From: Microbotryum violaceum
Lineage: Eukaryota
Assembly: GCA_001244265.2 (NCBI GenBank)
Contig: CDLV01000006.1
Location: forward strand, 1,612,001-1,676,000
Direction: 5' to 3'
Length of the DNA stretch: 64,000 nt
Of this stretch, positions 4,673 through 58,993 are shown piece after piece; within the stretch, counting starts at the first letter, position 1, and every line of letters starts with the position of its first letter. The position numbers were made by a program, and so were the translations under genes. Under the pieces are notes generated by a model. The model was not told the origin of the DNA, did no database searches, and saw nothing but the letters and a program-made list of their open reading frames with translations.

Positions 4673-6196
4673 TCATTCGTCATCATCGTCGTCCTCTTCC
4701 TTCATCGAGGCCTTGTGGGCTGTCCTCCTTATCGACGGCTTCCGCGGGGTCGGAGCAGGTGAATCAGCCTGGGAAAGGAAGCGGATGCATCATGATTAGC
4801 TTCAAGACGTGGGCCGGGAATAAGACGACACTCAGGTGAAAACTTGCCTCGGACTCGGACTTCCCCTTTTTGGACTTGGACTTGGATTTGGACGAACGAG
4901 CCTTCTTCTTCTTGGGTTTCTCCTGTGAAGATGAAAACCCACGATCAGCAACCGCAAGAGGTGTGACAGGTCGTGGGCTCTGGATGCTCACCTCCTCGTC
5001 AGTCGAAACAGCCTCAGCCTCTTCCTCCGAATCCTCATCGGGTGTAGCTTCCTTCTTCGCACGCTTCTTGGCCAGCGCCGCAGTCTTCTTCTTTTTGGGC
5101 TTTTCCTCCTCCAACTCTTCCTCATCTTCGGCTTGCGCCTTCTTGCTCTTGCTTTTGGCCTTGGGAGCAGGCGCTCTCTTGTTGGGCGAACTGTGTCCCT
5201 CTTTGGCGGGACGGCCTTCGTCCGCCGGCGACTCGTCACCTTCTTCGTCCTTGGCCTTGGCTGACTCGGGGATGTCTGCGAAGGGGTATCATCCAATCAG
5301 CTTGCATCTTCGAGGGGGGATACACCATTGAACCAACGTACCTTCAGGAGCAACTAATAGCTCGCAAAGCAATCGAGAGGTTCGGCGTATCAGCATCGGC
5401 AGGACGTCATGTCACTGCGAAGCTACAAACTAGGCTCACTGTGTCCCGTCTCGTAAGCCTTCTTCACTCGCTCCTGATCTTCCTCCCTAAGGTCTTCGAA
5501 ACCTGATACACTCGTAAGGTGGTGTCAGTCGCCGAGTATTGGGATATCATACCGTCGCAGACTCGACTCACCGTCGATGTCCTCCGCTTTGTCGATCTCT
5601 GTATGTTCCGAGACGGCCAAATTTGTTAGTCTGTGTTGATTGATCCCTACAGTTCAATCACTGACTGTTCTTGACGTTGGCCAGGACGGTTTTGGTGAGA
5701 CAGCCCCAGTGCCTCCATTGGAAGCTCGTCCTCCCCACTACGAATCATCGACTCAGTAAAGCCAACGGTCAGCGTACCGTCGACTGGGGCGAGGCAGCTC
5801 TGCTCTGTTTAATTAAACTCACTGATGTCTACCACTGTTCCAAAACGCAACTCTCCCTGCAAACCCAACAGCGACTGGGGTTAGATGCTTGACATGGCTG
5901 ACGCAGTGACGAGAGGCCGTCGGAGCTGGACCTGCTTTGCCAATCTTGGTACCCGAGCAAGGCTTAGGGCCTGCACACAAAGGATAAGACCTGATCAACT
6001 CAGTCAGCGGATCTCGAAGGAGAGGTTCCGGGGATATCGCATACCTTTGCATCCTGCTTGCGCGCTCTGCGGAGCGACGTCACATTGAGCAAGTGGGGCA
6101 CAGGCCGACAGCGTCAGCGCCTGTCGATCACTAGCACGCGTATCGATAGGGCAGAGGTGAGGAGCCTACCTTGGAGTATTCGAGTCGATAGCTCAT
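4673..6196 (-). CDS. PARP-type zinc finger (zf-PARP) protein with a Lys/Glu-rich tail, many small exons
   Basis: MSYRLEYSK..GPKPCSGTKIGK..FQWRHWGCLTKTVLANVK..IDKAEDIDG|FEDLREEDQERVKKAYETGH, followed by KPKKKK/acidic low-complexity sequence. Internal exon boundaries approximate. Confidence 0.8.
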
Positions 6197-7146: not shown

Positions 7147-10137
7147 TACTTGTTCGAGGCGATCGAGCGACGATGTGGGAATCAGTCGAGCTCGGCTTTG
7201 TCCAGTCGCGTGCAATGTTCGGCTGTTGAGCTCAAGAAACTGGTCCTCGATGCCAGCGAGGGCGTTGTAAGTCAAAGTCATTGTCACGCGTTCATCACTC
7301 TGACACGTGAATACGTCGATCTCGCGACGCGTCCAGTTCTTTGCATATACTCACCTTTTCCTGGTCGCGGCTGCCTCTTGCGTCATTGCAGGATGACAAG
7401 TCCTCGGCCAACGATTTCATCGACACACTCGAGCGAATAGTGAACGAGATCAAAAACACCACCGTGAGTAATTTAACCAGGAGCCGGCGTTAAACGTGGC
7501 ACTGACGCATTTCATAATCTTCGATTGTGACAGGAGCATTCAGCAGCGTTCTTGCAAAAGGTCCGGAAGACCGACGTTCCGGACTATTATGACAGTACGT
7601 CAAGAACCGGAAACTCCGTCATGATCGAAGACTGCTTGCATGCTCACCTCTCCGAAATGCAACGCGAATAGTCATCAAGCACCCGATGGATCTCGCAACA
7701 TTAGCCAAGCGCGTCAAGCAACAAATGTACAGGTCCAAGAAAGCCTTTGCGGAAGAGCTTGATTTGATCTGGTCTAATTGCTTGTTGTACAACTCTCATC
7801 CGGTGAGCGCCACTCTGCCACCCACACTACGGAAGGAGAGTTCTCCAACTGATCTTGGCACCTTCACTGCGACAGGGACATCCTCTACGTCGATCAGCCG
7901 AAATCCTGCGCGCCAAATCGAACCAACTCCTCGAGTTTATCAGCGATCCCGCTCTACCCACACGGTCACTCTATGCTCAGACGGTCGCGACTCAGGTTGG
8001 TGGAGCTTCTAGTCGGCATCGTAACAGCGTGAGAGAGACACCCGCTCCCGGCGACGAAGCCGACGTCGAAGGCGATGACGGGAGCGAAGCTGGCGCAAGG
8101 GCAAGAAGCGTATCTGTCGCCCTCGGACGGCATAGCAGTATCCTGCAAGCCGCGAACGAGCGGCTGCTGAATGGCGTCAATGGCGATGCTCGGGAACGCT
8201 CCTCGTCGCCGATTTCGGGTCCTCACACACCGCTGGCGAGCACATTCGCGCCTCGCAACAAACTGGGTCGAGGCCCGCTGGGTCGATCACCCTCTCCTAT
8301 GCCCGAGCCCGAACTGCCCTTCGAGGAACGCCCTGCTCTCATTCGCACAGCACAGGGGATGCTCGATTTCGCCTCCCTTGACGATGAGCTCTCCCGACTG
8401 GACGCTGAACTCGAGCGCAACCCCGTCGCGTCGACGTCCAAGTTGATCTATACAAATCCAACCTCGCTCGTCGCAAAAGCGTCAAAGACATCGCTGGTCT
8501 CTGAAGCATCATCCCACGATTCCGCTGAATCGCAATCCTTTCTATACAAGCTCGTCCACTCTCTCAACCCTGCCGCATACCCCTCACCCCCTCCATCCAT
8601 CGCTCCGACGAACGGCGATTCCAGCTCGTCCGGCGCTACAGGTGAGGCAAGTCCACCCTCCGCCACCACAACCGTCACCTCCCGACCTAACCTCGACGAA
8701 CCTCCGGATAGTCTCTGGTGGGAAACTGTTGCTCCGAGTGCCGAGACGGCTACCTGCCTTCACGACGTCGATATTCCTTCGACCGCCTCGTTCAAGGCAC
8801 TCGCCGCTGGTATGCCCCTTGTTCCTTGGAGACCCGCACCGCCAGAAGCTAAGAATGGACATCGCGTCAAGCGGAGAAAACTCGCCAAAGGTCACGAGTC
8901 AGAAGGTCGGGGCGAGAACGGGGTTGCTGAGGTTCCCAAAGCTACGACGAACGGGAAGAAGGTCAGCAAGGTCAAAATGAATGGGACTGGCCAGAACAAG
9001 AACGCCGTCCCTTTGGTCGGACTAGGTCGCAAGATGCATCACAATACGGAAACACTGCGCAAGATCCGGCGGTTGCACAAGTTCCTTTCGAGTGGGACAA
9101 GAACGCCGACGTCAATGATGGAGCCGCGAGCAGAGGGTGACATCGTCCTTCCCGTCGCGGCCGACCTCTCAGAATCCGATGTCGAAGACTCCAAAAGACC
9201 GCGAGGCGCGGCGTACCTTGACTCGGGCGTATCGGCGTCGGCATTCCGCACCGCCGAGGCGCCCAAGGCGGCTCGGCAGAGCATGGAATTTGTCACAACA
9301 AGGGTGCTCGAGCACGTCGGGTTCGAGAGCTCGAGCTCCATCGCGCTCGACGTTATGACCCATGTTGCTTCCGAGTATCTTTCAAATCTGGGCCGCACGA
9401 TGAGATTTTTCGCCGATCGGTTTGGTGATAAGATGTCGACCGAACAGCTGTTGCTGCATGTCCTCAGTGAGAACGGCGTCGCTTCTCCATCCGACTTGCA
9501 CGCCTACGTCTCGGACGACATTGACAAGTACGGCGCGACTCTGGATGGATTACACGGCAAGATGGACAAGGCTCGACGAGATCAGATTCAGGCGACCGAA
9601 GTCGAGGCGACCGTCGATGAGTCCAAGGTCTTCCTTGAGGATGATGAATTGGCGATTGGTACTCTATCAACCGTGACGGGCGAGGACTTTTTCGGACTCG
9701 AAGCTCTGGGCCTCGATAAGGAGAATCATGGTGCGACGCATCTCTCGATCCCGTCGCGCCTCTTCAGTGGTCAGGCCGAACCAGTCCAGGAGATCGAATA
9801 CCCACCACCACCGCTCACGATCTCGGCCATCTCAGCCTTGCCTCGTCTCTTGCAACCATACTTTGCTCTCCGAGCCGCGAACCCCGACTTGGGTCTACAA
9901 GAAGACCACACGCGCTTGCTTCCGGGATTACCAGGATTCTTGCCCCGAGCCAAAATCTCGCCTTTGACTGGCAAGATCTCGGCCAAGGGAGCACTCGCTC
10001 AAAAGCGCAAATTGGACGAGCTGATGGGAGTCGAGGGTCTGCCTTCGCCTACAGTCACAGTCTCGGCTTCGAGCATCGATACCAATTTTATCACTCAGGC
10101 AACAAACAGAAAGAAGTCCCGGCTTGTGGACGGGTGA
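7147..10137 (+). CDS. SPT7: SAGA complex subunit Spt7 (bromodomain plus histone fold); 5' end uncertain
   Basis: Bromodomain exons EHSAAFLQKVRKTDVPDYYD|IKHPMDLATLAKRVKQQMYRSKKAFAEELDLIWSNCLLYNSHP|GHPLRRSA. C-terminal histone fold RVLEHVGFESSSSIALDVMTHVASEYLSNLGRTMRFF, and GEDFFGLEALGLDKE. Confidence 0.85.
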
Positions 10138-10337: not shown

Positions 10338-13300
10338 CTACGAAAGGTCATCCTCATCGTCGTCCTCATCATCGGAAACCTGCATGAACGCGCTCCTCAT
10401 CCTCTGCTTATCCATCTTACGTTTCGAGCTCACATCCTCCAACAAGACGAGCAAATCCTCCTGCTCCTTATCCGCCTCTTCCTTCGCCGATTGAGCTTGC
10501 TCCAACTCCCTTCTCAAAGTAGACACTTCCTCCGCCAAGGCGTCGTCCGATCTTCCCGCTCTAATCGTATCGACGTCCAAAGGTGTCGCGTCCCTCAATT
10601 GATCCAATTCCGTACGCGTGGAAGCCAAGTGTTGTCGACTGGTCTCGAGTTGACTATTCGTCGATTCGAGTAACTTTTGCGTCCGTTCGAGTTCGGCGCG
10701 AAGGCGTTCGAGTTCCATCGGGTCGTGCGTCGGGGGAGGGGCGGGGGGATGCGAACCGAACGGCGAGTCGTTCGACGATATAGTTTGTGTAGAAGAGGAG
10801 TTGAAGAAATCGATACCGGACTGGAAGGACGAAGTCTCGTTCGCTCCTTGAGAAGTAGGCTGACCACCACCGAAAAGATCATCGACTGTCCTCGAATGTC
10901 GAGCTAGTTCTAGTTCGCTAAGCACACGTTGGTGTTCGCTATGCGCGGTATCGAGTTCGGTTCGCAATGTAGCGATCTCTTGTTCCAATATTTCGATTTT
11001 CTTCGATGCCTCGTGATCGACCACAGGGTCTAAAGGCGATGTTACTGCAGCTGCTGCGGGCAGCGATGGAGCGTAAGGGTCATCCCCCCGAGGCGCATAC
11101 GGATCATCCCCTCCTCGAGGTGTATAAGGATCATCACGGTTGTTGTTACTTCCTCCTCCGCCTCCTGTTCGAGCCGCGTTCACATCAGCATAAGCCTGTT
11201 CAAGCTCGGCTTGTAAACCCGAGATACGTGCGGTGAGACTTTCAATCTCATTTTGAAAAGCGATACGCTGTGAGTCGACTCTGAGATCAGCCCTCTCCCT
11301 ATCGTTCAAAAATGCGAGCCGCAAAAGCCAACAATCCAGAAGAAGAACTCACCTCTTCATCCCTCTCCGCTGCCAAACCCAAGATCTGATTCCTCATATC
11401 CTCCATCTGTTCGGTCTGCGTCGCGATCGACAACCTTAGAGCGGTGACGACCTCGTACGAATCGCCGTTCCCGTCCAATGATCGACGACTGGTCGTGTTC
11501 GCCGTTGGGTCCATCAGGATCGCTCGTTGGACCGAGACTGTTCAATATAGTCACAGCAGGCCGTGTCAGTTTGGAGTTCTTTTGAGAGAAGTGAGCGAGA
11601 AATGAACACGTACTGTAGTTGGTCTTCAAGAATTCAACGAACGAATAATCAAACCACAGTCCTTGTTCCTCCCCCAACTCTTCCTCCATCTCCTCATCAA
11701 TTAACTCCAACACCGCCGGTCCAACACTTCGGAACCTCTCGTCCTCCCTCAACCTCAAGATCCTCGAAACGAATTGATCGGCTCCAACACGAGAATGTAG
11801 GATCGGATGTAGGGTTTCACGAGTTATCGGTCCCGGTTCTCGGTTGTATTCGTAGCATATCCCGAGGAGAAAGGCACAGAGCCCTTGGACGACCGAATCG
11901 ACGCCCGAGGATTGGGTGATGGGTTGGATCAACTGTAAGACCCCATCAGCGATCGAGAGGGCGTTAGTCTTCTTCGAAACGAATTGTGGGCCTCCTGCGC
12001 TGTTGATTCAACTTTGCTACTCACGACTTGAAGATTGGAACCTTCGCTCAAAAACTCGGTAACGGTCGTCGGACTATCCCATAACCACAACGAAAGCACC
12101 ATCAAATAGCCCACCATGATTCGACTCCACTCCAAACCCCGATCAGGACCCAAGCCCGCATTGGCACTCTGGACTTGTTCCCTTTGCGCCATCATCAAAT
12201 TCCCGACCAAGATGGAGACCAAACTCGCTCGTTCTTCCTCGTCCCCATATCCCCCCGGTTCGGCATCATCACCGGTGAAATAAATCTTGCGAGCGAATTC
12301 TTTGGACGTTTCGGAGCCCATGATGAGGTGGGAGAAGAGGAGACAGGCGAAGAAGGGGACGTAGGAATCAAAGTGGTCTCGCGTGGCGGAAGGGAACGTT
12401 CGCATCGCGTGGAGGAGGATCGAGCCGGCGGATGGGATCTGAGGTCCAGAAGGATCGGTGTCGGGTGAGGGTGCGACCATGGTCGACAAGATGCCGAGTT
12501 GGGTTTCGGTCGAATTGGCAACGTAACTTTGGAACAAGTTCGCCGCTGCGGCTCGAACGCGTAGGCCTGATCGGCCGGGTGTACCGTCTCCGACCACGGC
12601 GAGTCGCACCACGGCGATCACAGCGGGCGCAGGCGTGCCCTTACGCCATTTGCTCCTGTTCGATCTTCGGTCCACCTCATCCTCATCCTCGTCGTCCGAT
12701 TGAGATCCACCACCACGTTGTTGAGCTTGTTCGCCGTCGTCGTAGTGCGGATTGTAGTGTTCAGCCGGCGGTAAAGCCATCGGTCGAATCAAAGGTACGA
12801 CGATGAGCGAGTTGAGCGCAGCTTGATTCGGTGGGGAGAGTCGCAAGATATCGGCGAGGGCGTTCATCGCCTGCGACTTGAGCATCGAAGGTGCATTACT
12901 CGCGAGCGCCATCTCGGCCAAACATCTCGACATGCCCGACGTCAGCAAAGCTTTTTGATTCGCTTCCCTTCCGGCACCGGCACCACCGACGAGCATGCGC
13001 ACGAGCGAGAGCACGAGCCCAGCGTTGACGACTTTTTGCTCCGACCATGATTGGAGCGCAAAAGCCGATAGCGAGGCCGGCGTTTGAGCCATGGGTAGAG
13101 GGAAGAGGAGGAGCGGGGCCAAGAGGGGGATGCAGGACGTTTCCCGAAAGTAGTTCTGTGCTTCAAAGTTTTGTCAGCACGTTGAAAATTCGCATCAGCG
13201 ATCTGCGGACGAAAACAATCGACGCACCTGATTGGACACGTTCCACCTCAGTAGTCCACCGATCGCGGCCAAGCAATCCTGTACGACGATTCCACCACTG

Positions 13301-22036: not shown

Positions 22037-22282
22037 GGCTGTCGGGTATCTCGTCCACTCTCGTTCACACGTGCGTGGACTTGTCCACTCGTGCAGAGAA
22101 GCTGAAGGTGAGAGAGAAGCTGAGGAACATCGTTTGAGCTTCAAGTGTTCCAAGTGGCATCACCGCCGCACCCTCGGCCTCGACGTTTGATCCTCGGACT
22201 CTGTTCTACCCAAACCATGAGAAAACAACTAAGAGGACACCAGACGGAGTCGTTGTACAACTCAGCCTGATACGTGCACGTG

Positions 22283-22337
22283 AAGAAGAAGAAAAAGAAG
22301 AAAAAGAAGAAGAAACAGAAAAAGAAAAAGAAAAAAA
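22283..22337. repeat. GAA/A-rich purine tract
   Basis: gaagaagaagaaaaagaagaaaaagaagaagaaacagaaaaagaaaaagaaaaaaa read directly. Confidence 0.8.
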
Positions 22338-22766
22338 GCGAACCCCCACACATCCCCATCCTCGAGTTTGACCTGTCCCGCCGCATTGCCCGTTGAAGCA
22401 GCTCAGCTGTTGACAGCGGGTGACCATGTTAGCAGCAGCTCGCAACTTCAGTTCGAGCGGACGGAACTACGTAGTCACACTTGGTGTGCATAAAACTCAC
22501 TTTTTGTGGAGAACGTTGTTGATTCATTGATACCCGTCATGACGTCACCGATTGGCGGACAAGAAAACTCCCTGTGACGCCAAATCCCGAGGTGGAGGCA
22601 AAGGTGGTGACGTAGAGGTGGATGACGTAAGCAAGAGGTTGACGGTGCGGTGAAGAGGAGGTTGATGGTCAAGATCAAGGTCAAAAAAGAGCGTGCATGA
22701 AATGAGGTTAAATCAAAGGTGTTGGAATCAGCGATGATCCCGAAATGATCAAGAAAAGAATAAGAA

Positions 22767-22839
22767 CGGCTGGACCAGGAGTCGAACCTGGGTCGCTTCC
22801 ATTCATTGGAAAAGCTTTGACCAACTAAGCTATCCGGCC
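22767..22839 (-). tRNA. tRNA-like gene or pseudo-tRNA (possible SINE head) with a non-canonical anticodon loop
   Basis: Minus strand GGCCGGA TA GCTT-AGTTGGTCA-AAGC T TTTCC-AATGAAT-GGAAG CGAC CCAGG-TTCGACT-CCTGG TCCAGCC G. Cloverleaf with intact A and B boxes, one acceptor-stem mismatch, no U33 in the anticodon loop; TTTT about 10 nt downstream. Confidence 0.65.
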
Positions 22840-22918
22840 CCTGATATCAGTGCAAGGTCTACTAACACCTTCAACACTTCCCCTTAGACCTTTGCACTGT
22901 TGCCAGGCTATTGCATAG

Positions 22919-25928
<3,010 letters not shown>

Positions 25929-26049
25929 TGCGTCGACTCTAAGTCCCAATTGGACTCTGTGTCAAGCTTCTGCGGCATCTCCGGTAACTTTGTGCAGCGT
26001 CATTGGAAAGATTTACATGAAAGGTTCTATAATAGATCCTCACAAAAGG

Positions 26050-26340
26050 TAGAGGTACAATGGGGAGGAACTGACGTAGAGGTGAAGGCAAGGGATGAAG
26101 GTGGAGGTGATTCGAGGTGGAAGCGAATGTGATGGTGATGGGGAAGGATGAAGGGTGAAAGTGAAGACGAGAATCGGACGTGGAGGTGAGGATGGTGATG
26201 AAGGTGGGGATGGTGTGATGTGCCAGTGTGAAGGTGATATGGTGTGAAGGTGGTGTGAAGGGGAGGTGGGGTGAAGGTAGTGTGAGGGTGGTGTGATGTG
26301 AAGGTGGATGCAAAGGTGAAGGTGAAGGTGAGAGCAAGGT
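26050..26340. repeat. G-rich degenerate repeat (GGTGAA/GGTGAT/GGTGTG units)
   Basis: About 300 bp almost free of C on the + strand, e.g. gaaggtgaaggtgaaggtgag. Confidence 0.8.
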
Positions 26341-26910
26341 CAGCCCAAGCCCGGCGTACAAGGTCGGGTCCGGCCGATGATGCCGCAGGCTGAGCTGCGC
26401 TGGCGGTGGCAGTGCATGCTCGGAGGTGGCCACAAGCGGAACTGACCCGATACAGTGACAACCAAAAACCTCTCCCAAACTCTATACCTCGCAAGACGAC
26501 CAGGACTGCCGTGGGCCCCTCTTCGATCAAGAGCGAGATCGGAGGCTGGTGACGATCCGAGTCAAGACCAGAGGAGGGCAGTGCCCAAGTCAGCGACGGT
26601 GGTACATAGGAGGTGAACTCACGGTGGCTGATGGTACACTACTGCCGACTTCCACCACCTACCGCCTCGGTGCTGCGTCGATGCGCTAGTCGGTTTCGGC
26701 CCAGTGGTGGAGGAGCCATGTGAGAGGTACTCATCAACGAAGAAGAAGGAAGGAGAGAGAGAGGTGGGAGTCATGTTGAGGGGTCAGAAGATCGAGCTGA
26801 TGAGCCAGGAGCGCGCCGGTCCCCGTCACGCGCAACCTGTTCACTTCTGACGCGACAAACACCTCGGGTACTACCCTCGCACTCCCTCATCTTTCGATCT
26901 CTCACCGACC

Positions 26911-27842
26911 ATGACGATCGCACACGCACACAAACTGCTCGACCAGGAACTCCTCACCGTTCCGGAAGCCCTATTGGGTCAGCATCAAGACGTGCGACAG
27001 GCGTTGGTTTCGCTGGTAGGCACCGTCGATGGCGAGTCCGAACACACCGTCGCTGCTGGTTCAACACTCCACCCACCGATGAACACCCTCCCCCCTCCCC
27101 CTCCCACCACCACACACACATCCGGCTGTCTACTAGTCGTGATTCTCGACGGCTCGACGCTGTTCTCCTCCGAGTGGTTCTCGGCCGCTCGGAGCGGCAC
27201 CTCGCAACAAAAACAAACGCAACGGTTCGTCGGCTCAGTTCGTGCAGAGGCGGATCGCATCGTCGCGGCGACGGCCGGACAAATCCACCTCGTGATCGTA
27301 TTCGACCACGCTTCGGCTCGTCCGGCCTTGAAGGCCCGTACCCACACGTCGAGAGACAACGGGAACGGCGTCCGGCGCTCGCCCCAAGTCTCTCCCGACA
27401 ATTTCCAAAGGAGAAGCTCCGACCGGAACACCGACCCTACGACCAAATGGGTCACCAATTTCGGCGGTCAAGGCGAGCTGGCCTTAGCGGGACACGTCCT
27501 CGACATGTCCTCGGAGGTCACCGTCGTCATCTCGGCGCACGAAGCCGACCCCCTGATCGCGGCAAGCACCCGACTCGGGGTCATCGGCGGCGTACGCGTT
27601 CAAGGCGACCGTACTGTTGGCCAGCAAGGATTCGGACTTCTTGCTGATGATCGGAAGCGAACGTGAACGCTACCGTATCATTCCTTCCGTCAAGCATCGC
27701 ACGACTCGAGTCATCGACCTCGAGATCCTCGAACGTCAGGGAAAGTTCCTCGGTGCGGAAGGAAGGTTTGTTGCGGGGTTGATGATGGGATGCAACTACC
27801 TGCCAACCGGTATCAAAAGTTTACGGTCCCGCCAGGCTCCAA
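26911..27842 (+). pseudogene. XPG/FEN1-type PIN nuclease gene fragment, frameshifted (left arm of palindrome)
   Basis: MTIAHAHKLL..LVVILDGS..LVIVFDH..LKARTHTSR..ISAHEADPLIA, then in a shifted frame LASKDSDFLL..GLMMGCNYLPTGIKSL. This is the order of XPG-N, XPG-I and H3TH motifs (VFD, EAD, SxDSD, GCDY..GI). Confidence 0.7.
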
Positions 27843-28458
27843 GTGGCGAGTTGGAACACTGACAGATCCAAATTTTCGAGCTTGGCCGGACCGTAAACTT
27901 TTGATACCGGTTGGCAGGTAGTTGCATCCCATCATCAACCCCGCAACAAACCTTCCTTCCGCACCGGGGAACTTTCCCTGACGTTCGAGGATCTCGAGGT
28001 CGATGACTCGAACCACCCGATGCTTGACCGATGGAATGATCCGGTACCGTGCACGTTCGCTTCCGATCATCATGAAGTAGTCCGAATCCTTGCTGGCCAA
28101 CAGTACGGTCGCCTTGAACGCGTACGCCGCCGATGACCCCGAGTCGGGTGCTTGCCGCGATCAGGGGGTCGGCTTCGTGCGCCGAGATGACGACGGTGAC
28201 CTCCGAGGACATGTCGAGGACGTGTCCCGCTAAGGCCAGCTCGCCTTGACCGCCGAAATTGGTGACCCATTTGGTCGTAGGGTCGGTGTTCCGGTCGGAG
28301 CTTCTCCTTTGGAAATTGTCGGGAGAGACTTGGGGCGAGCGCCGGACGCCGTTCCCGTTGTCTCTCGACGTGTGGGTACGGGCCTTCAAGGCCGGACGAG
28401 CCGAAGCGTGGTCGAATACGATCACGAAGTGGAGTCGTCCGGCCGTCGCGGCAGCGAC
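27262..28458. repeat. Long inverted repeat / fold-back palindrome, ~580-bp arms and ~30-bp spacer centred near 27860
   Basis: ORFs 26911..27666(+) and 27796..28425(-) share a long identical peptide stretch; the DNA arms are reverse complements. Confidence 0.95.
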
Positions 28459-28560
28459 CCGAGCAGCTTAGTCAACGTCCGCTCCCCACTCGCCAAGTCG
28501 GGCGGATTCCCTCGGAAAGCCGAGGCGTCGTAAAAGTGGACGTGAGCCCACGGCAGGGAC
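27873..28560 (-). pseudogene. Second, inverted PIN nuclease gene fragment (right arm of palindrome)
   Basis: Reverse-complement copy of 27262-27842 with the same motifs and the same frameshift. Beyond 28458 it diverges to HVHFYDASAF-like sequence. Confidence 0.7.
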
Positions 28561-28754
28561 TACGTCGAAGGATGTATATTATTGGTTACATAACATTGCG
28601 CAAGAGCTTGATCCCTTGATCTGAGCGTGCTAAATCAAGGAAGAATGTCCCAACGAGTAATTGCAAGTGCGCTTCCTGGCGGACTCTCCGACGTCGACTC
28701 GGTCGGGAGCTCCACGTGTACGTAGTGTACCGACATGAGCGGCGACGCCAATGC

Positions 28755-31700
28755 TCACCGCAAACCACCGTCGAGAAAAATCTTGGATGCCGGCCTGATT
28801 GTTGCCGAGCTGCCTTGTCTTCGGGGAATAATACCGCTCCGCAAATCCCGGACCGCAGCGTCGAAGCCCCCTCGGCCAATCGAACGTCTTCCCGCCTTGG
28901 GAGGCGATGCCGAGGGCTGTGCAAGGCGATATTAGACTGAGATCATGTGATACGTCCTTTGTATTCCTTAGACCTGGGATACGACTCACTGGATGCTTTT
29001 CTTTTCCTTGCTCGACTTCTGGCATCTTCAAGTGTTTCCCCCGGTTTGCTGGCTTCGTCCTTGCATCGATGTCTTTGAGCTCGTTCTCGCCGTGCTGTAT
29101 GCCCGGAAGCCTGATCAGTTCCAACCCTCAGATAAAACTGTACGGATGTTACACGTACGAGCAGAGAGTGGGAGAATGCATTGAACGTTTCGAACAGTCC
29201 TTCCGGCTTGAACGTTTTGCTGTCTTCGCCGTAGTACTCGAGCAGGGACACCAGATCGCCCTGTAGCTTATGGCTAGTTTGTTCGAGAGCAATGATGGCG
29301 TCCGAAGCATGGGACACGAATGTCTGTTGAGGTCAAGCAGTTAGACGAGGTTTCGGTTTCCCAGGCCTTCACACTCGGTCCCAACACTCACCTCCATCAA
29401 AGGAATAAACTGATCACCTTGGACAGGGGCTGTGTTCTCGTGCGCGAAGACTAACTCTTCTTGCACTTGGGCCATCCCATCAATTAAGCTTTTGACCGAA
29501 GCCATCACGGTCACAAACGAAACTGCTCGAGTTGCTTAGATGGACACGGTCACGACAGGTACGATGTCGATATCACGATCAACTTGAGACTTACCTCGTG
29601 AAGCAGCTTCCACATGCGGGGCCTCGTCTTCAGCCCAGGTCATCAGATCCGGATCCGATAGATTAATTGCCCGAACGAGATAATGCAAGAGAGTCGGAGT
29701 AGTTGAAGATGATGATTTGATATCCTTGAGCTGGAGTTCGTGGCAAACCTGGTCAGTCGTGCCGGCCTACTTGATCCTCAGGCTCATGAACCGTCTCACC
29801 TGCAGCAGCGCTCCAATGCGAAAACCCGCAGCGTTCCCACGAGAGGTGTTGGCGTTGAGGGTGTTTCCAAATTGTAAGACCATCTGGTACCGACACATAT
29901 AAACTATACGATCAGCATCTGCTCAAATGTATGGTCGTCTGAACTCACCGCCAGCAATCTCTTCAGCTTCATCCCCTCGCGTAACTCGGTCGTCGCGCAG
30001 CGAAGGATCGATAATTCGGGCTTAAGCTCCTCCATCTCCATTTCGAGCTGTCGTCGGTAGATCATTGCCTTCAAGCGGCTAGGTATTCGAGGGATGGTGA
30101 TCATCTGTGATAGTTGGAAAATGATGAGCTTCGAGGGTGTCAAGGCGCAGTAAGGCTTGCGCAGGCTCACCTCATAAAAGTATCGGTCGGCGGGTGAGAG
30201 CAACTTCTTGTCTCCGCCGTAGCTACGCAGAAGTGTAGTCTGAAGTACAAGACCCATCAGCAAGGAATACTGATCGTTTAGAGCACAGCTACGTACCTCA
30301 TCCGCCGTCGGCGCGAAATGCGCAATCTGCTTCAGCGTCTCGATCGACAGTTTCCCATCGTCCATAGAGAAGACTGCTTCTCGAATCTCTTGATGAGAGA
30401 TTCGGATTCTCGCTAACATGATTGAAACATTCTGAGCTCGAGTCATACCCAACAACGTGGTGACGCCAGCTTTCTTCTTGCCTTCCGTCACGGCCGCATT
30501 GGCAGTCGCTCCGCCGGGGCGGGCGTTAGGGGCCAATTGAAAAACCTCGATCAAGTCCGGCAGCTCAGGAACGATTACGGCCGTATCGATATGCGACCAA
30601 ACATTTGAACTAGCAAGTTGGTGAGGAGCGACTTTAGTCCAGAAGAAAGGGCGTGTTTTCTTCGGCGGTGAGTCAGGAGCCGTTCGTGGCTTAGCTTCGG
30701 CGGAGCTCGGTAGCGCATTTCCACCGCCAGCTTGGATCCAAGATGGTCCTATAGGTGGTGCGAAAGGAGCTGCTGATAGACCTTGTGGTTTCGAAGTTAT
30801 GATAGGAGGCGGTAGAGGAGGTGGGGAAGGAGCCTCAGGGGGAGTGGGTCCCTTGGCCGGGGAAGGGCTCGGCCCTGCGCTCGCCGGGAGGGCTATTTTT
30901 CCTGGCTGCCCGAGTGGAGGTGGAGGTGGAGGTGGAGGCGGAGGCGGTGGGGGTGGAGGGCCGAGTTCGCTCATGAGTGGCTGCCGGGAAGCGAGGGTAG
31001 CTTGTAGTTTACGGTCCAGGCGAGTCTTATCCTGGGATATTTCTTTGGGGCTGTCCGAGATCTGAACTGCGGGCATAGGGAACCCGAGCAAGGCCTCCGC
31101 TCCCCGAGCGGCTTGAAGGCGAGCAATGAGCGGGATCGATGCTGCGCAAGTCCGGACGCTTTGGACGGGAGGAGATGGAGGAGCGGGCGGAGGCGGCGGC
31201 GGCGGAGGGATAATCTCAACTGGAGTGGAAGTCAGAACATCGAATAATGTCTGGTTTGACGGCTCGAGGAGAGGTGCGTCCGGAGGGACAGGGGGTGTGG
31301 CCGGATCAGTTGGAGGAGGTGGGGCGGGAGCTCTCCTGCCAAAAGCGGTGAGAAGTTTGAGCCGTCTCTTTGCCTCGTCAAGCTCCATTCGGAGTCGCGC
31401 AGTCTCCTCAATTTTTCGGCTCAATTCGAGTGTCACGTCCGTCGAATACGGAACCGAGAGTGATTCATCGGTCGAAGTCTGAATGCTCGCGTCCGTCGAG
31501 GGCACAGGCCGAACACAACTCCGTGCGGCGATTTCTTCTTCCTTCTCGGCGAGGGCGTCTCGAAGTTTTTTGACCTTGTTAAGAAATGTAAACAGACATG
31601 AACATTCATGGATGTCAAAGATGTCTCTTGTAAGCGGCTCACCTCCGCCTCCTGAATTTCACCCTGACGCAACAGAGTCGTGATTTGACCCTGTAGAGCT

Positions 31701-35804: not shown

Positions 35805-38800
35805 ATGGCTTCCCCCACAGTCGACCATGCGTCTTCCCCATCAGACGCAAATGAACCATCCACCTCTGCCTCCAATCAACGGGCACCGGTCGTCGATCCA
35901 CTCCCTCATGGCCTTCCGATCCGCTTCTCTCGCCTGTCGGTCCCATCGTCGTCATCGCCGCTGCTCGGGACGCCCGCCGGTGGGGGAATCTCGGAGGCGC
36001 TCGTCGCGACCTTGGGAAGTGCGATGATCGACTTGATCAGCCTCGGTCCGGTACGGAGGGCTGTGAGGTCGACGATCAACCAGCGGCGTCGGGCACAAGA
36101 GGATCCGGGGACCCTGAGCGAGCGAGAGCGAAGAGATCGGACGAGATCGATCGTCGCCGGCGTAGAGGGCGTCGTGCACCAGGTAAGTCGAGAGAACGTC
36201 GAGAGTTGTCACGGTGGAAACACGGTCCGCTGACTTGGGATACTCACGCATTACAGAGCGAGATGCTACTGATTGTGGGGCCCCCATCGGCGAACGTCTC
36301 GACTTTGCTTCGAGCGCTCTCATCTCCGTCCGATCTGCCCATCTCGGCCTCGTCCCATCTCGACTATGGCCAATTACCACCTGCGACCGTTAACAGACCG
36401 TCCATCATCCCGCCCTATCCCGCCAACGCGGGCAAGCTCCGATCCCAGGTCGTCTACATGAACGACCACGACGTCCACTTTGCCACCCTCTCGCTTCGCA
36501 ATTCGATGCTGCCTGGCTCGCTCGCCAAAACCCCAGGGACACGGGCACGACTCGATGGATCGACGAGGAGACAATGGGCTGACTCGCAACTGAATCGACA
36601 TGTCGATGCCATGGGCCTGTCTCACGCGATGGGCACCAAGGTTGGCTCTTCCGTCGTCCGAGGGCTTTCGGGTGGCGAAAGGAAGCGAGCATCCCTCGTG
36701 GAAGCCCTCTTGACAAGGGCTTCGGTCCTGCTTTTGGAAGCTCCAACATCCGGTCTCGATTCGTCCACGGCTCTGAGCGTGTTGACGTACCTCCGAAATT
36801 GGGCCAAGCGGGGCAAGCGGTCGATCGTCGCGACGGCCCCCCACATTGCAGATCCGCTCTACTTTCAGTTCGACAAGGTGCTCGTTCTCAACTCCGCCGG
36901 TCGACAGATCTACTTCGGCAAGGCGAGTGATGCGCAGGTATACTATGAAACGCTCGGACTTGGTTTCCATCGACGCACCGAACTCGGCGAAGGAGTGGCC
37001 GAGTTCCTCGTGGCTTGCAACGAGGGCCGTGGTAACGACGTAGTGCTAGAAAAAGCATGGATCAAGAGCGAGGCCCGACAGCAGGTCGCGAATGAGATTG
37101 CAGACTATGACAAGATATACCCCCTCGAAGAATGTGCTCAACCTCTGCTAAAAGCCCTGGATCTGGAAAAGAGCCGAACGACCCAGGCCCACTATACCGT
37201 TTCGTTCCTGTATCAGGTAAGCTGAGCGCCACAGGTGGCAGATCGGAAGACGAGGCTAAAGCATGGACTTTACTTTTCGGAAGGTCCTCCTTCTCACCCG
37301 ACGACAGTATGCTCTTGTCTACTCCGAGCTGCCCGGCTACGTCACCAAGACAGTTGTCAACATCTTGCTGTCCATCACTGTGGGCACACTCTTCTTCCGA
37401 CTGCCATCAACCTCGTCTGCCGCTTTCACTCGTGGGAGTTTGTTGCTTCTCTCGATCATGTTTAACGCATATCTCTCTCTGGCCGAACTCGGAAAGGCGA
37501 TCGAAGGCCGAGACATCGTTAGGCGGCAAGGAGACTGGGGCTTCTTCGGAAGCAGTGCATTGGCATTGGCTCGAGTGGCCGGTGATATCCCGCTCATTTT
37601 TGCACAATGTCTGCTCTTCGGTACCGTTACCTACCTCATGGCGGGCTTGCAGGTGAGTGGGCCGTGGTCGCCCCTAGAATGCGCAGCAGTGCGGCGCAAA
37701 TGGCTTAGTTGCTGAATCAAAGCTCCCTCGTGGTCGACGCGTGCCTCTCTTCAACCTGCACAGTCAACATGGTCCCATTTTTTTATCTACATCATCTTCG
37801 TGAATGCGACAGCACTCAATCTTTCATCGATGTTCCGCATGTTCGCCGCCTTTTCCCCTGGCTTTGAGGAAGCCATCCGCTTCTGCGGCATTTGCCTCAA
37901 CATCCTCGTCATTTTTGCTGGTTACTTTATCCCGACACCATCGATGCGGAAGGGTCTCAAGTGGATTCATTACGTCGTTGACCCTATCTCTTATTCATAC
38001 GAGGTGAGCCATTTGCGTGTACCTCGAGCCTTCTGACATGACCTGACCAGGTTCAATGGGCACATCTAGGCTGTGCTCGCCAACGAGTTCCATAATCTCA
38101 GCCTTAGTTGCTCTCCGGACGACATCGTACCCTTCGGACCGACCTACACCCGCCCAGAGTACCAAACTTGCTTGCTAGCGGGGTCGACCTCCGGCTCGCT
38201 CATGGTATCAGGCGACGCCTATCTGGCCATTTCGTACGATTTCCACTACTCCAACATCTGGCGCAACCTCGGCATCATGGCTGCTCAAGCCCTAGTCTTC
38301 CTCGTCATCGGCGTCGTCGCGACCGAGTTCTTGCACTTTGCACCTGGAGGCACGAAGCGCGTGTGGGCTCGCACGAAGCGCGTGATGAAGAGGTTGGAAC
38401 GAGCCAATCGGTGGTACAAGCAACGTAAAAGTGACGAGGACGACTATGGGGTTGACTTGGTGCCGATGTTTGAGGAAGATATGGACGATGACGAGGACGA
38501 ACTGATTTGTCAAAGTCAAGGGGTGCAAGATGGGAGCACACTGATGTGGAAAAACGTGTGTCTGTGGGTCGATACCGAGTCGGACACAAGAAGGTTGTTG
38601 GATCATGTCGATGGTTACATCAAGCCTGGTCGCGTCTGCGCACTGATGGGCGCCAGTGGAGCGGGCAAGTCGACCTTATTGAATGTGCTTGCAGGAAGGA
38701 CGGTGGGAGTCGTCCGGGGAATCGTCTTGGTGGATGGTATCCCGCCCGACGAGCAGTTCTACAGGACCACCGGCTTTTGCGAGCAATTTGATTTGCATGG

Positions 38801-40897
38801 TAAGGCACCTATCGTTCACTTTTGATTGATATGATCCCATCGAGCTCAAATAATGCCTCCTTTTCGTGCAGATGAGCGATCTACCATTCGTGAAGCACTC
38901 GAATTCTCGGCACTCTTGCGTCAAGACGCCAGCATCCCACGAGCGGAAAAGCTAGCCTACGTTGACCACGTGCTCGAGCTTCTCAACCTGACCTCAATTC
39001 AGGATGCGATAATTGGCACACCTTCGGAAGGCTTGAACGCCGAGCAGCGTAAGCGCACGACCATCGCCGTCGAAGTCGTCAGTCGACCTCGCATCCTCTA
39101 CGCCGACGAACCGACGACGGGCCTCGATTCTAAATCGGCTCTCAAGGTCGTCAAGTTGCTTCGTCGACTTGCGAGGACCGGCCTGGCGATAATCTGCACG
39201 ATTCATCAACCTTCGGCCGAAACGTTCAACGTCTTTGATGACGTGCTTCTCCTTCAGCGCGGTGGGCGACAGGTCTACTTTGGTCCGAGGGACGAGTCGA
39301 TCGCCTTTTTCGCCAGTCTCGGGAAGGAGAGTACGCACCAGAACCCTGCCGACTTTTTACTCGATGTCGCTGGAGCCGGTCTGGCATCGACGGATGGAGA
39401 AGACCTCAACAATGAGCCCTTCGTTGAGGATCCCCCTCCCGACCAGAACGTTGCCCTAAAGTGGAAGGACTCGAGGGAATGCGATCAACTCGCCGAAGAA
39501 CTGGACACTCTCTGCGCGGCACCCAAGAGGCTTCGACGCAAGGTCGCCGTACCAGGGACGTGGTTCGAATGCGTCGAGTTGACGAAACGAGTGACTAGGC
39601 ACTACTGGCGAGACCCATCGTTCTCTTACACGAAGCTCTTCACTTCAACCATCGTCCCGTTCGTGATTGGTCTGTCCTTCTTCCGGGTCGCACAAGAGTA
39701 CTCGATCGTCTCGTTCCAGAATCGACTGTTCTCGGTCTTTTTGCTCTTGTTTGTGCCGGTTGTCTGGTTGGTGAGTGCGACTCTCAGAATGCACGCCCTG
39801 CCTTCCCGCACTGAACTAGGAACCTTCTTTATCGTTTCCAGAACGTTATCATCTTCAAAATCTTCAAGCTCCGAGGCCTGTGGGAGGCTCGCGAACGCCC
39901 GTCGAAAATTTACGGTCGCACGGCGTTCGTCACCAGTCTTCTCGTCTCCGAGCTGCCCTACTCGCTGGCATGCGCAACGCTCTATTTTGTCATTTGGTAC
40001 TTCCTCGTTGGGTTCCCACTCAAGTCGGAGACACTCGGGTTTGGTATGTCCTGATTTCGAGATGATGACTGGCGGGGAGCGCCCACTGACTTGGTCTTCC
40101 ACACCTACAGCCTTCCTCATGATCCAGCTATTCTACCTGTTCCAGGTGAGCATCCAGATTTCACTCTTTCTACATACCTCTGCTGATTCGATTTTACAAA
40201 GCTTCTCTAGTCGACATGGGCGTTGTGGATCGTTTCACTCTCGCCCGACATCGGAACGATTGCGAACTTGCTTCCTTTCTTCCTCGTCAGCATGGAAGCC
40301 TTCAATGGCGCTCTGATGTGAGCAAAGCTTCCTACACCCAGCCGTCGGAAGTGCATCACTGACGAAGGTTCAGCCCTCCTTGCGTCCCACAGGCCATATT
40401 CCCAGATGCCAAGGTATTGGCGATGGCTCTATTACGTCTCACCCTTCCAGCACTACGTACAGTCGATGCTCGGCAATCTCTTGCACGGACAGCCCATCTC
40501 ATGCCTCCCATCCGAGCTCGTCACCTTCGAATCGCCCTACTCAGTTTCATGCGTCGATTACATGCGCAACTACCTCCGCGAGAACGCCGGTTACCTCACC
40601 AACCCAGCCTCAACGACGACGTGCTCATTCTGCAAGTTCTCGAATGGGGATGATTATATGGCGACGCTCAACATCGCCTACCAGGATCGATGGCGTTCGC
40701 TCGGCGTCTTGTTCGTATACACGATCACGAACGTCATCATCGCTTATGGGTTGGTGTTTTACCCTGTTCCTTGGGGCAAAGTGCTGTTCTGGCGCCAAAG
40801 TGGAGGGAGACAACATGCTCGAGCCGAGATGGCTGCGACGAAGGAGTATGAACGCGAAGTGGCTGAGATGTTGACGGCGACGACGCTGAGGACTTAG
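35805..40897 (+). CDS. Full-size ABCG/PDR-type ABC transporter (NBD-TMD)2
   Basis: NBD1 VRGLSGGERKRASL; PDR extracellular loop LANEFHNLSLSC..YQTCLLAGS..WRNLGI; NBD2 LMGASGAGKSTLLNVLA, GLNAEQRKRTTIAVE, DEPTTGLDS, CTIHQPS; end MPRYWRWLYYVSPF..CSFCKF. Start uncertain. Confidence 0.93.
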
Positions 40898-48133: not shown

Positions 48134-50051
48134 CGTGGGGCCGAGGTGTGGTCCAGCGCGCTGAGGTGGAGGGAGCGAGGCGTGGTGCAGGGGAGGGAGA
48201 GCGAGGGAGACGTGGGGGGACCCGCTGACTGAGCCAGACTGAGCCCGCGGCTGCAAGTGGCCCAAGGAGCCGAGTCTGAGCGCTCTGAGCACTGTGGGGT
48301 GAACTGCGCCAGGTAGCCGAGACGTGACGCTGAGCTGAGCGGAGTAAAAGGCAGGCGCACGTTCGAATTTCAAATCCGTGGTGCATGCGCATCTCGATAC
48401 GTGCACTCAAAAACTACAAAACACGAAAAGGGTTGACGAGGGAGGCTCGGTTATTTGCCAAGCGCCGGTCCAGTTGAGTTGCGGAGTACGACTTAGCACT
48501 TCAATGGGAGGAGTGTGAAGATCCGTTACTGACGCTGGGTGGGAGATGGGCAGGTAGGAGAGAAGGCGCGTCTGCCCGACGGACGGTGAGACAGCACAGG
48601 TCGAAACCTGCAGCACGGGTTGGGATCTCGACTCGACGAGCCGAAACGCCCGATTCGCAGCCGCCAGCCGAGGTGGAAGGACGGTGCCAGCTGCCACGCC
48701 TTGCCGCCACGCCTTGCCAGGTGCGGGGGGTTTGCAGTGCTCAGTCGAACTCCGGGGTAACCCTCGATTCAAGCTCGGAGATCTCGGACACGTCCTCCTT
48801 GGGTCTGCAGCAGCCGTGGAAGAGGCCTTGCGAATCCGCCGCGTTTTCCATGAGACCAAAAAGTGGACACAGCCACGCAATAAGAGACTGACGAGCGTGT
48901 AATCCAACCGTCAGTTAATTGCAACAAAAGTGGCTGTGAAGCTAAACATGCGTACCTGACGAGCGTGTACTCTAACCGTGGAGAGAAGACAACGGTTGGT
49001 GCGCATCGTCAGGCTTCACTAAACAGACGAGCGCTTCTAACCAGATTGCCAATGAGCGCGCCATTCCTAACCCTCATTCCCAACACACCAACTCGCGCTT
49101 TCTCCCAACGTTCAGTGCGCGAAGTCGTAGACTTGACGAGTTCAGAAAAGGGGCCAGCCAGGTCAGGCTACGGTTCTGCCTATCAGTATCTGGTCATTCA
49201 GGGCAGTTAGTCCGTAGGTGACAGCTAAAAATGTAGTAAACTAAAAAGGACTCATTTATTTTCATTTAAATATCTCACCAATTGCCTACCCATCTGTTTA
49301 CACTTCACAAGCCGACCGTAGATCAACAGGATGTGTCCGAGGCGCTCCGAGCGAGAATCGCAGATCGTTTACCCCAGGGCCGCCAGCGCATTCTGCAATT
49401 CTGCGCGCGCACATGAAATGCATAAAGGCGGCGTGCCCTCGAATGCCGCGGCTCCAACCGCTGTTCGGTCAAGACAGGGAAATGGCGTTGAATGCATAGA
49501 AAAACACCTTCTTTTTTGATACAGGCTTTACGTTGATCACGAGCCATGGGCTGTGCCCGGGTTTTTTATCCTCATTGCCTGCGGCATCGATGAGCTGAGC
49601 GCGTCAAAATCGATTGGCTCGGTTGCAAACAGCTTTTGGGGTGGTGTTTACCCCGCCGTTTTCTGAAGCGAGGCGGGCATCAGTGGGCTTCCGTGCACCC
49701 CGAAGAGCCGATGAGAGACAAATAAATTGACGAGAGCCCGTAAATTAATGAGGATTTACCCGTTTCCAAGCCTTGTATCTGAAAAGACATTATAGGAGCC
49801 CTTCTTCTCGCCCGCAGCCGCCGCCCGGGAATCCCCCCAACCCTGGGCCAGATCAGTTGCGTAGGGAGTTAGTATACAGGTAGCTGTGCCCGAAAGGTAA
49901 CGATAGCCCCACTCACCCTCTGCGAAAAGTACCTCGAGGTGAATTAACGCCCGCGGTCGGTCCGTGCGCCACCGTCTGGACCCCTTTTCAGTATAGCATG
50001 CTCGTCTCGCCGAACCGAGCGTCTTCGCAGGCTTGGACTCGTACTATCAAA

Positions 50052-55431: not shown

Positions 55432-55890
55432 TTAATAATTGAAGCTGGAATCGCGAGTCATTCTCTCTTGGAATTCAAATTCTCATCAGCCTGCTCCTGC
55501 TCCTGCTCCTGCGGTTGCGTTCCTCACCCCACCGACTTGCTTTGACGTCGGCTTCGGATCCGGTACACCATGTTGCTTCGGATCCGTGGTCGTACACGTG
55601 CTCGTGCTCGTGCCTCGTCGAGTAGGTTATCGCGCGCATCGCTCGTCGTTGGAGTGAGAGAGATTGGTCGGTCATCCGTCGAGGTGTGACTTGGGGTGCA
55701 CCACCGCCCCACCGCCCCACCGCCCCACTCGACGGCACTCGCGTCGGTCGCACCACGCCCCACGCCCTGCACAGCTTGTACTGACCCTCCTTATGTTCGA
55801 ATCACAGGTGAGGACGAGGCTTTATCGTCTGCTCCAACGAGCAACGTCAACTCGCCCGCCCAGCCGGCCCCGAAACGACCTCGCTTCACG

Positions 55891-58993
<3,103 letters not shown>

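Follow-up and report, generated by a model that had tools for sequence, protein, structure and literature searches.

A palindrome in a broken nuclease gene of a dispersed element family with a Fanzor-like second gene in Microbotryum violaceum

A long palindrome in the genome of Microbotryum violaceum was found to lie in a dead copy of a mobile element. It was studied in a 64-kb window, by which we mean the whole stretch of DNA that was analysed (contig CDLV01000006.1). We show here that the repeated sequence belongs to a dispersed family, that the copy in the window is dead, how the junction between the two arms is built, and that the arms are mosaics. The plan of the element is a left end followed by ORF1, which encodes a FEN1/XPG-like nuclease, and ORF2, which encodes a Fanzor-like nuclease. 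The palindrome alone is of little weight, and the element family matters more. The new observations are a common left end preceded by a TCG-N motif, an asymmetry of 24 left ends to 2 right ends, and the history of the junction. The mechanism that produced the palindrome is probably an ordinary one; of greater interest is the one-ended and apparently transposase-free mobility of the family.

The palindrome and its fold junction

Local alignment pairs a left arm at 27265–27842 (plus strand) with a right arm at 27875–28452 over 578 columns, with 21 mismatches and no gaps. Ungapped extension takes the pair to 27250–27842 and 27875–28467 (593 nt, 95% identity), and the right arm as annotated (27875–28467, minus strand) is a 5'-truncated, inverted fragment of ORF1. 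It is the sole self-inverted match in the whole 64-kb window at E≤1e-4. The loop between the arms is 32 nt long and contains TTGGA at 27851–27855 and TCCAA at 27867–27871. A previous sequence-only reading had described inverted arms of about 580 nt, a spacer of about 30 nt and these two motifs within it, and all three descriptions were borne out.

The two arms are identical over 27290–27638 (349/349). Differences are concentrated in a divergent patch at 27639–27705 (plus strand; mirror 28012–28078), where 13 of the 21 mismatches fall within 67 nt, a clustering reached in 0 of 20,000 permutations. Because 5 of the 11 codons changed in this patch are synonymous, it appears to have been imported from a paralogue and not made by decay. 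The right-arm version of the patch agrees with locus L035 at 65 of 67 positions, and the left-arm version reaches at best 52 of 67 against any of six copies. At its outer end the right arm departs over ~40 nt from both the left arm and intact copies. Right-only sites are found at this outer end (nine in 27250–27289) and left-only sites in the inner patch (11).

The fold junction (27835–27874, minus strand) consists of an imperfect inverted microhomology at 27835–27842, in which 6 of 8 nt are paired, and the 32-nt loop. The loop is the right arm's own gene continuation: read on the minus strand, this arm can be aligned with intact copies as far as 27835. The arms had been said to end alike at the H3TH motif at the fold point; since the loop continues the gene of the right arm, the ending is asymmetric. 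Beyond the right arm, 28468–29400 gave no family match when compared with the fetched loci and proteins. The element family as such lacks the palindrome: none of the three other copies that span this region (L025, L026 and L027) is folded there.

The palindrome is genuine and not an assembly chimera. Contigs from the public short-read runs X1, X5, X11 and X13, 4 of 24 listed runs, were compared with the window. The X5 contig crosses the loop (27794–27923) with one difference, contigs of X1, X5 and X13 match the left patch with no differences, and contigs of X1, X5 and X11 join the right arm from 28398 to unique flank. In addition, protein P0008, an independent record named as a Microbotryum silenes-dioicae protein from another assembly, ends in a peptide specific to this junction. 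Several of its residues are unlike those of the left arm in the window, and its mix of left- and right-arm residues is a different one. An assembly fold-back chimera would fit the fact that no listed contig covers the full stretch, but it is extremely improbable given that both junctions and the left patch are spanned by contigs, that the arms differ at 21 sites, and that P0008 carries the same junction peptide. Read depth, which is not a copy-number measure here, was about twofold in the identical arm part relative to the flank in X1 (164.6 vs 82.3) and X5 (88.1 vs 43.2), with no doubling in X11 (6.2 vs 7.8).

The nuclease gene and its element family

The element copy in the window lies directly downstream of TCGAC (22180–22184, plus strand), a probable target motif in a TAM-like position, and lacks about the first 10 nt of the element. 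The left end and the first part of the 5' non-coding region occupy 22185–22721 (plus strand; 80% identity to L025:2290–2821). The element is then split by a nested insertion at 22720–26044, a small repeat that is itself broken by other repeat DNA including a LINE-like piece. The ends of this nested repeat (22720–22896 and 25927–26044) are contiguous in L124, and an ORF inside the insertion (23425–25278) gave a zf-RVT hit at E 6.6e-4. The rest of the 5' non-coding region follows at 26045–26910 (plus strand). It carries a ~320-bp deletion at 26767–26770 that is common to L030, L031 and L032, and 26770–26910 is identical to L030 and L032 (141/141).

The 5' half of ORF1, from the PIN core to the H3TH, is present at 26911–27842 (plus strand) as a pseudogene of an XPG/FEN1-fold nuclease, and it ends just after the H3TH. 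This copy is dead, because both arms carry the same two frameshifts, near 27613–27619 and 27820. The Asp of the H3TH also reads as Asn in both arms. Nuclease motifs had been noticed in both arms, and VFD, HEAD, SKDSD and GCNY are indeed found in each, but split over two frames, and GCNY and GIK derive by mutation from the GCDY..GI(E/K)G of the family. The acidic motifs DG, VFD, HEAD, DSD and GCDY align across family copies and homologues. The gene had been taken for intronless, which is probably incorrect: a putative GC-AG intron of 105 nt lies at 27032–27136 (plus strand), a stretch that varies in length among copies and is left out of the gene models P0005 and P0018.

Profile and model comparisons identify the ORF1 product as a predicted PIN/FEN1/XPG-fold nuclease with an H3TH. 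A profile built from eight genome pieces matches yeast Rad2 (E 2.6e-5), and Atlas places an intact-frame ORF1 piece beside the XPG_I and Pox_G5 clusters (0.92). For a model of the P0005 homologue (mean pLDDT 51), Foldseek gave eight matches at E≤0.001, all of the FEN/EXO family, and VIA comparison with EXO1, GEN1, XPG and FEN1 gave Z scores of 9.5–10.4, the best match being EXO1 (Z 10.4, rmsd 4.8, 233 aligned). These matches agree with the initial suggestion of a PIN/XPG-like nuclease, although Pfam found no XPG/PIN family in the ORF1 pieces and homologues scanned. The intact family resembles FEN1/EXO1/GEN1/XPG 5' nucleases and poxvirus G5 in having a PIN core, an H3TH and the motifs DG/VFD/EAD/DSD/GCDY. 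It departs from FEN1/EXO1/GEN1/XPG in sharing only 9–18% identity with solved enzymes, in the missing Pfam XPG hit, and in that ORF1 is multi-copy and mobile, with a dead copy in the window. A search of representative proteins yielded 18 homologues, of which 17 are named as Microbotryum and one as Rhodotorula pacifica. The longest Microbotryum homologues have 560–610 aa, and a word-index protein search with the L025 ORF found nothing among longer proteins.

The window's ORF1 is the ORF1 of a dispersed element. Searches of the 33-Mb genome gave 24 DNA matches and 29 protein matches, which fall into at least three subfamilies. As the sequence-only reading had proposed, the gene is part of a repeat family and not a housekeeping nuclease, and the family is an uncharacterised mobile one. 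Further copies do exist, but every copy examined is broken.

A sharp left end ~1.65 kb upstream of ORF1 has 24 matches in the genome. TCG-N stands directly before it in 19 of the 24 copies of the window's subfamily (16 of 21 anchored copies and three others read separately). In subfamily B, TCGA precedes a similar end in 6 of 8 places, with the duplicates L158/L191 and L190/L191 taken once each. TCG is followed by AC, A, C, G or GC, and the flanks further upstream are unrelated. From this variation we infer that TCG-N is a probable target motif and not part of the terminus. A separate subfamily B left-end stub of 86 nt, also after TCGA, is found elsewhere in the window at 48363–48448 (plus strand; 99% to the L074 left end).

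The right ends are ragged, and internal deletions occur often. Compared with 24 left ends there are two putative right ends: a common right end occurs only in L123 and L160, ~530 nt after the ORF2 stop. No terminal inverted repeat (TIR) was seen, the left end and the putative right end of these two copies having at most ~5–6 nt in common. Target site duplications (TSDs) were not consistent in 32 and 31 rows compared, with no null computed and with the rows of L123 and L076 mis-anchored; candidates were 8 nt in L076 and 7 nt in L032. Folding of the element ends is weak (-3.0 to -8.1 kcal/mol, without a shuffle control). No transposase was seen between the ends in the copies read, and there was no complete copy among the 52 sequences compared; in subfamily A, ORF1 and ORF2 occur together in 0 of 52 sequences (51 loci and the window). 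Three further candidates were rejected. An antisense transposase in the 1.7-kb leader has no conserved frame or coding signal between subfamilies, the Helitron-like piece beside L069 that suggested a Helitron link is a separate high-copy repeat, and so is L025:6705–8232, which had been considered as the 3' part of the element.

The family shows one-ended truncation together with a target motif, as do non-autonomous Helitron2 elements. In PMC3627910, the CRe-1/2/3 elements of Chlamydomonas (non-autonomous Helitron2-Fanzor1) likewise have one fixed and one ragged end, internal deletions, a short target motif and no transposase of their own. According to the same text, the fixed end of CRe is the 3' end, whereas here it lies upstream of the genes, and truncated CRe copies have TSDs of 7–19 bp, which are not the rule here. 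Neither an ATIR nor a terminal hairpin of the kind described there was seen in the present element.

A Fanzor-like second gene

ORF2 was located by walking downstream of subfamily B copies. L070 and L074 of this subfamily contain the left end, ORF1, and then the first half of a second gene. A homologue of ORF2 (E 1.1e-17, 30%) is present in L123, a copy that shares the left end of the window's element and has lost ORF1. In L123, ORF2 ends with IGIDLG, VFVGEGG, DEYNTSSVCSDPTC and CEKECRPPIHRD, the order of motifs being IGIDLG, VFVGEGG, DEYNTSSVC..C and C...C....HRD. The three parts of the TnpB/Fanzor motif are located at positions 5410, 4602 and 4345 on the minus strand and are spread across frame breaks; from the frame changes, ORF2 appears to be interrupted by introns.

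A Rhodotorula protein of 1721 aa, P0020, fuses the ORF1 domain and a Fanzor-like part. Its start corresponds to the ORF1 domain (hhalign 97%, E 3.1e-11), and VGVDPG is found at 1425, NEAWTTKSC at 1616 and CMHCGRVYHRD at 1660. The motif of TnpB/Fanzor proteins is given in the portion of Bao & Jurka 2013 consulted (PMC3627910) as D-X(125-275)-[TS][TS]-x-x-C4-X(5-50)-RD, and both P0020 and the L123 ORF2 contain it. The catalytic Glu of Fanzor lies about six residues before the zinc finger, as stated in the accessible part of Kojima 2026 (PMC13565253), and this position is occupied in DEYNTSSVC of L123 and NEAWTTKSC of P0020. P0020 matches PF07282 (E 7.3e-5) and NF040570 (E 0.0036), both below curated cut-offs, and two pieces of L123 match adjacent halves of PF07282 (E 0.02 each, likewise below the cut-offs). 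Atlas relates P0020 to a TNB-domain cluster (cosine 0.97, 200/256 features). Judged by these motifs, ORF2 carries the RuvC and zinc-finger signatures of Fanzor/TnpB proteins, and a link between the nuclease gene and a TnpB/Fanzor-like RuvC gene, one of several partners initially suggested, is found in L123, L070 and L074 and in the P0020 fusion.

Other searches were negative. Genome searches with P0020 and PF07282 missed ORF2, and two PF07282 rows lay in other repeats; direct sequence comparison of the L123 ORF2 with P0020 was not significant. A word-index protein search with the N-terminal and RuvC regions of P0020 returned only P0020 itself, and no Fanzor came up when the PDB was searched with the A5 profile, P0020 and a piece of L123. 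The RuvC model was poor (pLDDT 48.8) and gave no match at E≤0.001 or Z≥8. The last 240–241 nt before the putative right end, which is represented by two copies only, fold no better than shuffles (z +1.28), and folding at this end does not support an omega-RNA there.

We consider it quite likely that ORF2 encodes an RNA-guided cutter of the Fanzor type with TCG-N as its TAM, and that ORF1 would trim 5' flaps during copying or repair. The sections of PMC3627910, Saito 2023 (PMC10432273) and PMC13565253 that were available describe Fanzor1 proteins with the same D...TS-x-x-C4...RD arrangement and Glu before the zinc finger as ORF2 and P0020, and in Fanzor1 Spu-1 a conserved motif abuts the left end, as here; the apparent interruption of ORF2 by introns is a further point of likeness. 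The present element is unlike the Fanzor1 elements in these sections in several respects: its partner is a FEN1/XPG-fold nuclease (separate, or fused in P0020) and not a listed transposase, it has no TIR or consistent TSD, and its flank motif contains CG, whereas the TAMs described there are AT-rich. L123 also has DLG in place of DPG. Where these sources name a partner of Fanzor, it is a transposase of the DDE, HUH, tyrosine or serine type; other Fanzors have none. No pairing of Fanzor with a FEN1/XPG nuclease was found in the portions of the literature searched, among them 10.1101/2023.08.09.552727, PMC10432273, PMC11423790, PMC10530073, PMC13565253 and PMC5499597; the papers that mention Fanzor together with a flap endonuclease or FEN1 deal, by title and opening of abstract, with editing tools or virus surveys, with supplements, Repbase and subscription journals lying outside this search, and the element family and its way of moving look undescribed.

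The FEN1/XPG-fold partner, separate here and fused in the Rhodotorula protein, suggests a module that cuts and trims in concert with homology repair. A direct prediction of the TAM follows from the motif at the left end, namely TCG-N, unlike the AT-rich TAMs in the available descriptions of Fanzor1. The whole could form an autonomous element without a classical transposase. An RNA-guided Fanzor would open TCG-N sites, host repair synthesis would copy the element from its left end, and the FEN1/XPG-like nuclease would trim flaps; early stops and template switches would give ragged right ends, deletions and fold-backs, some of which would silence the family. As a complete scheme this is unlikely. 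If it is true that no transposase is needed, eukaryotic DNA elements would have a means of spreading that is new.

Origin of the palindrome and a possible hairpin RNA

For the palindrome itself we hold, with moderate confidence, that copies of this two-gene element, already broken, underwent a fold-back (inverted) duplication. A break just after the H3TH of a minus-strand ORF1 fragment, today's right arm and loop, would have produced a 3' end. This end may have annealed to the 6-of-8-nt inverted microhomology ~32 nt away and copied itself back over ~550 nt. Recombination with a fuller family copy on the left, with a switch near 27290, would have healed the new end. The 67-nt patch would stem from subsequent gene conversion, both from arm to arm and with dispersed copies. 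The palindrome would then have no designed role, and a hairpin RNA would be a by-product if the element promoter or the neighbouring formin gene reads through.

Both the loop that belongs to one arm and the microhomology at the turn argue for a fold-back. Over 27290–27829 the arms have in common a 3-nt deletion and 46 differences from the majority of L025/L026/L027, and 30 of these 46 are also seen in L029 or L034. DNA just upstream of the left arm is 99–100% identical to L030/L031/L032, and 27355–27638 is 91–93% identical to L025–L027, the comparison copies being different ones in the two bins; in its outer 40 nt the right arm departs at nine sites from the left arm and those copies. This identity pattern, with the outer right-arm differences, fits a fold-back begun in the right fragment and ended in the fuller left copy. 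Inverted duplications induced by double-strand breaks in wild-type yeast, in the available sections of Al-Zain 2023 (PMC10622511), made use of a 5-bp inverted repeat whose spacer was 35 bp long, and dispersed repeats were the place to which their far ends mapped. According to these sections, the present case resembles them in the short imperfect inverted repeat at the turn, the ~30–35-nt loop from one arm and the far end resolved at a dispersed repeat. It is unlike them in that it spans 0.6 kb, is old, lies in a transposon remnant and has been reworked by conversion. The mismatches at 27830, 27835 and 27840 in the junction and the donor of the left patch are unaccounted for by the fold-back model.

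The order of events is not fixed, and joining two paralogues tail to tail would lead to the same arrangement. It is conceivable, if somewhat unlikely, that two diverged paralogous copies were joined in this manner at the microhomology, and that later conversion or crossover erased most of their differences. In favour of such a join, the leftover differences form codon-like clusters, one at the outer end and one in the inner patch, and the left arm in P0008 carries right-arm residues. This join requires breaks in two copies at places no more than ~40 nt apart, a coincidence that follows directly from a fold-back, and the match of the right patch to L035 (65/67) means that conversion from outside the palindrome can explain the patch. 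The residue mix in P0008 seems to point to conversion between the arms.

Repair is known to yield fold-backs, and the repeat patches of this genome contain them frequently. Other family copies contain them at L033 (twice), L070, L152 and L189. Excluding the index case, ~64 kb of family sequence gave four centred fold-backs and one at an edge, compared with 10 in 420 kb of flanks; control loci (109 kb) gave two rows at one place, and the family excess is small. These counts, the 24 left ends against two putative right ends and a 42-nt inversion at the same spot in L069 would be expected if fold-backs were a regular product of the family's copying, which would start at the left end, stop early and switch templates. 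We regard this as quite unlikely for the present palindrome. The numbers are small and carry no formal test, and the loci were chosen by family membership; the left part of the window is near-identical to unfolded copies, and the right arm is joined to host DNA without an element end.

A transcript through the palindrome is predicted to fold into one long duplex of about 580 bp (-1259 kcal/mol), as the sequence-only reading had expected of it, and a hairpin RNA from this locus is possible. Of the listed runs that contain the sequence, none is on record as RNA; X13 may be an RNA run and is given no weight as evidence of expression. There are two possible sources of read-through, the element promoter region on the left and a host formin gene on the right (28946–31658, minus strand), which points at the right arm. 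The formin FH2 domain was detected in 29907–31658 (E 2.7e-31) and in 28946–29332 (E 1.9e-5), and the 3' end of the gene is approximate. The expressed genes of a Microbotryum genome include those for Dicer, Argonaute and RdRP, according to PMC4469406. The duplex, the flanking sources, this expressed RNAi core, the junction in another assembly (P0008) and the broken state of all family copies examined here are each compatible with a functional hairpin-RNA silencer of the family, similar to Mu killer and kept for its siRNAs. Such a role is nevertheless very unlikely, as palindromes occur outside the family too (the 10 centred fold-backs in the 420 kb of flanking DNA), close assemblies can share the junction without selection, and the arms cover ORF1 alone.

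Mu killer of maize is reportedly a hairpin-RNA silencer that consists of a partial inverted duplication of a transposon, expressed possibly from an outside promoter. The present locus is similar in being a partial inverted transposon duplication beside a possible outside promoter, and differs in that its hairpin is a prediction made from the DNA. Should siRNAs arise from the hairpin, it would provide a natural example, in a fungus, of a transposon that silences its own family. The palindrome had also been proposed as a cruciform fragile site, a suggestion that the 32-nt loop appears to weaken.

Captured ORF1 sequence and inverted repeats at other loci

A 140-nt fragment of ORF1, the FEN1/XPG-like nuclease gene of the element, lies inside another repeat elsewhere in the genome (L035:4589-4728, L036:5289-5428, and L037:4613-4754). 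The captured fragment spans almost exactly the patch over which the two arms of the window palindrome differ most (27639-27705, mirrored at 28012-28078), and there it matches the right arm at 65 of 67 positions. L035 and L036 are themselves an inverted segmental duplicate on contig C2 (∼9.7 kb, 99%).

Inverted repeats were also seen at other loci. A Fanzor-like ORF2 copy on C5 contains one of 1079 nt (L189:6518-9358; 100%, spacer 683 nt), which looks to be of very recent origin. At L069:6486-6528, a 42-nt inversion is combined with a deletion, and its position at the H3TH motif is identical to that of the window fold point. Centred palindromes of ∼800 nt (78%) at L039:3117-3922 and L127:3667-4420 both lie outside the element family, and perhaps represent a single type of fold-back repeat.

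Paired 3.7-kb units on C14

Two 3.7-kb units, 98% identical and each beginning at the left end of the element, are located on C14 of the same assembly, G000 (L124:525-4197 and L125:5726-9376). They point away from each other across ∼9.4 kb, have different left flanks, and contain DNA also present 3 kb downstream of ORF1 at locus L025, where an ORF resembles, by eye, a glycoside hydrolase. The units possibly carry foreign DNA.

Other features of the window

The nested insertion in the window copy (22720-26044) is a repeat of ∼295 bp, intact in L124 and here split into 22720-22896 and 25927-26044, and other DNA is nested within it in turn, among it an A-rich tail and an ORF of LINE-like type with a zf-RVT match. 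Sister subfamily B is represented at 48363-48448 by a stub of its left end, 86 nt long and again lying directly after TCGA. Ordinary host genes, assigned by Pfam, encode Bromo_TP (7807-10134), Uso1/p115 head (11932-13173), ABC-2 type transporter (35855-40313), and helicase C3 domain (55690-56964) proteins.
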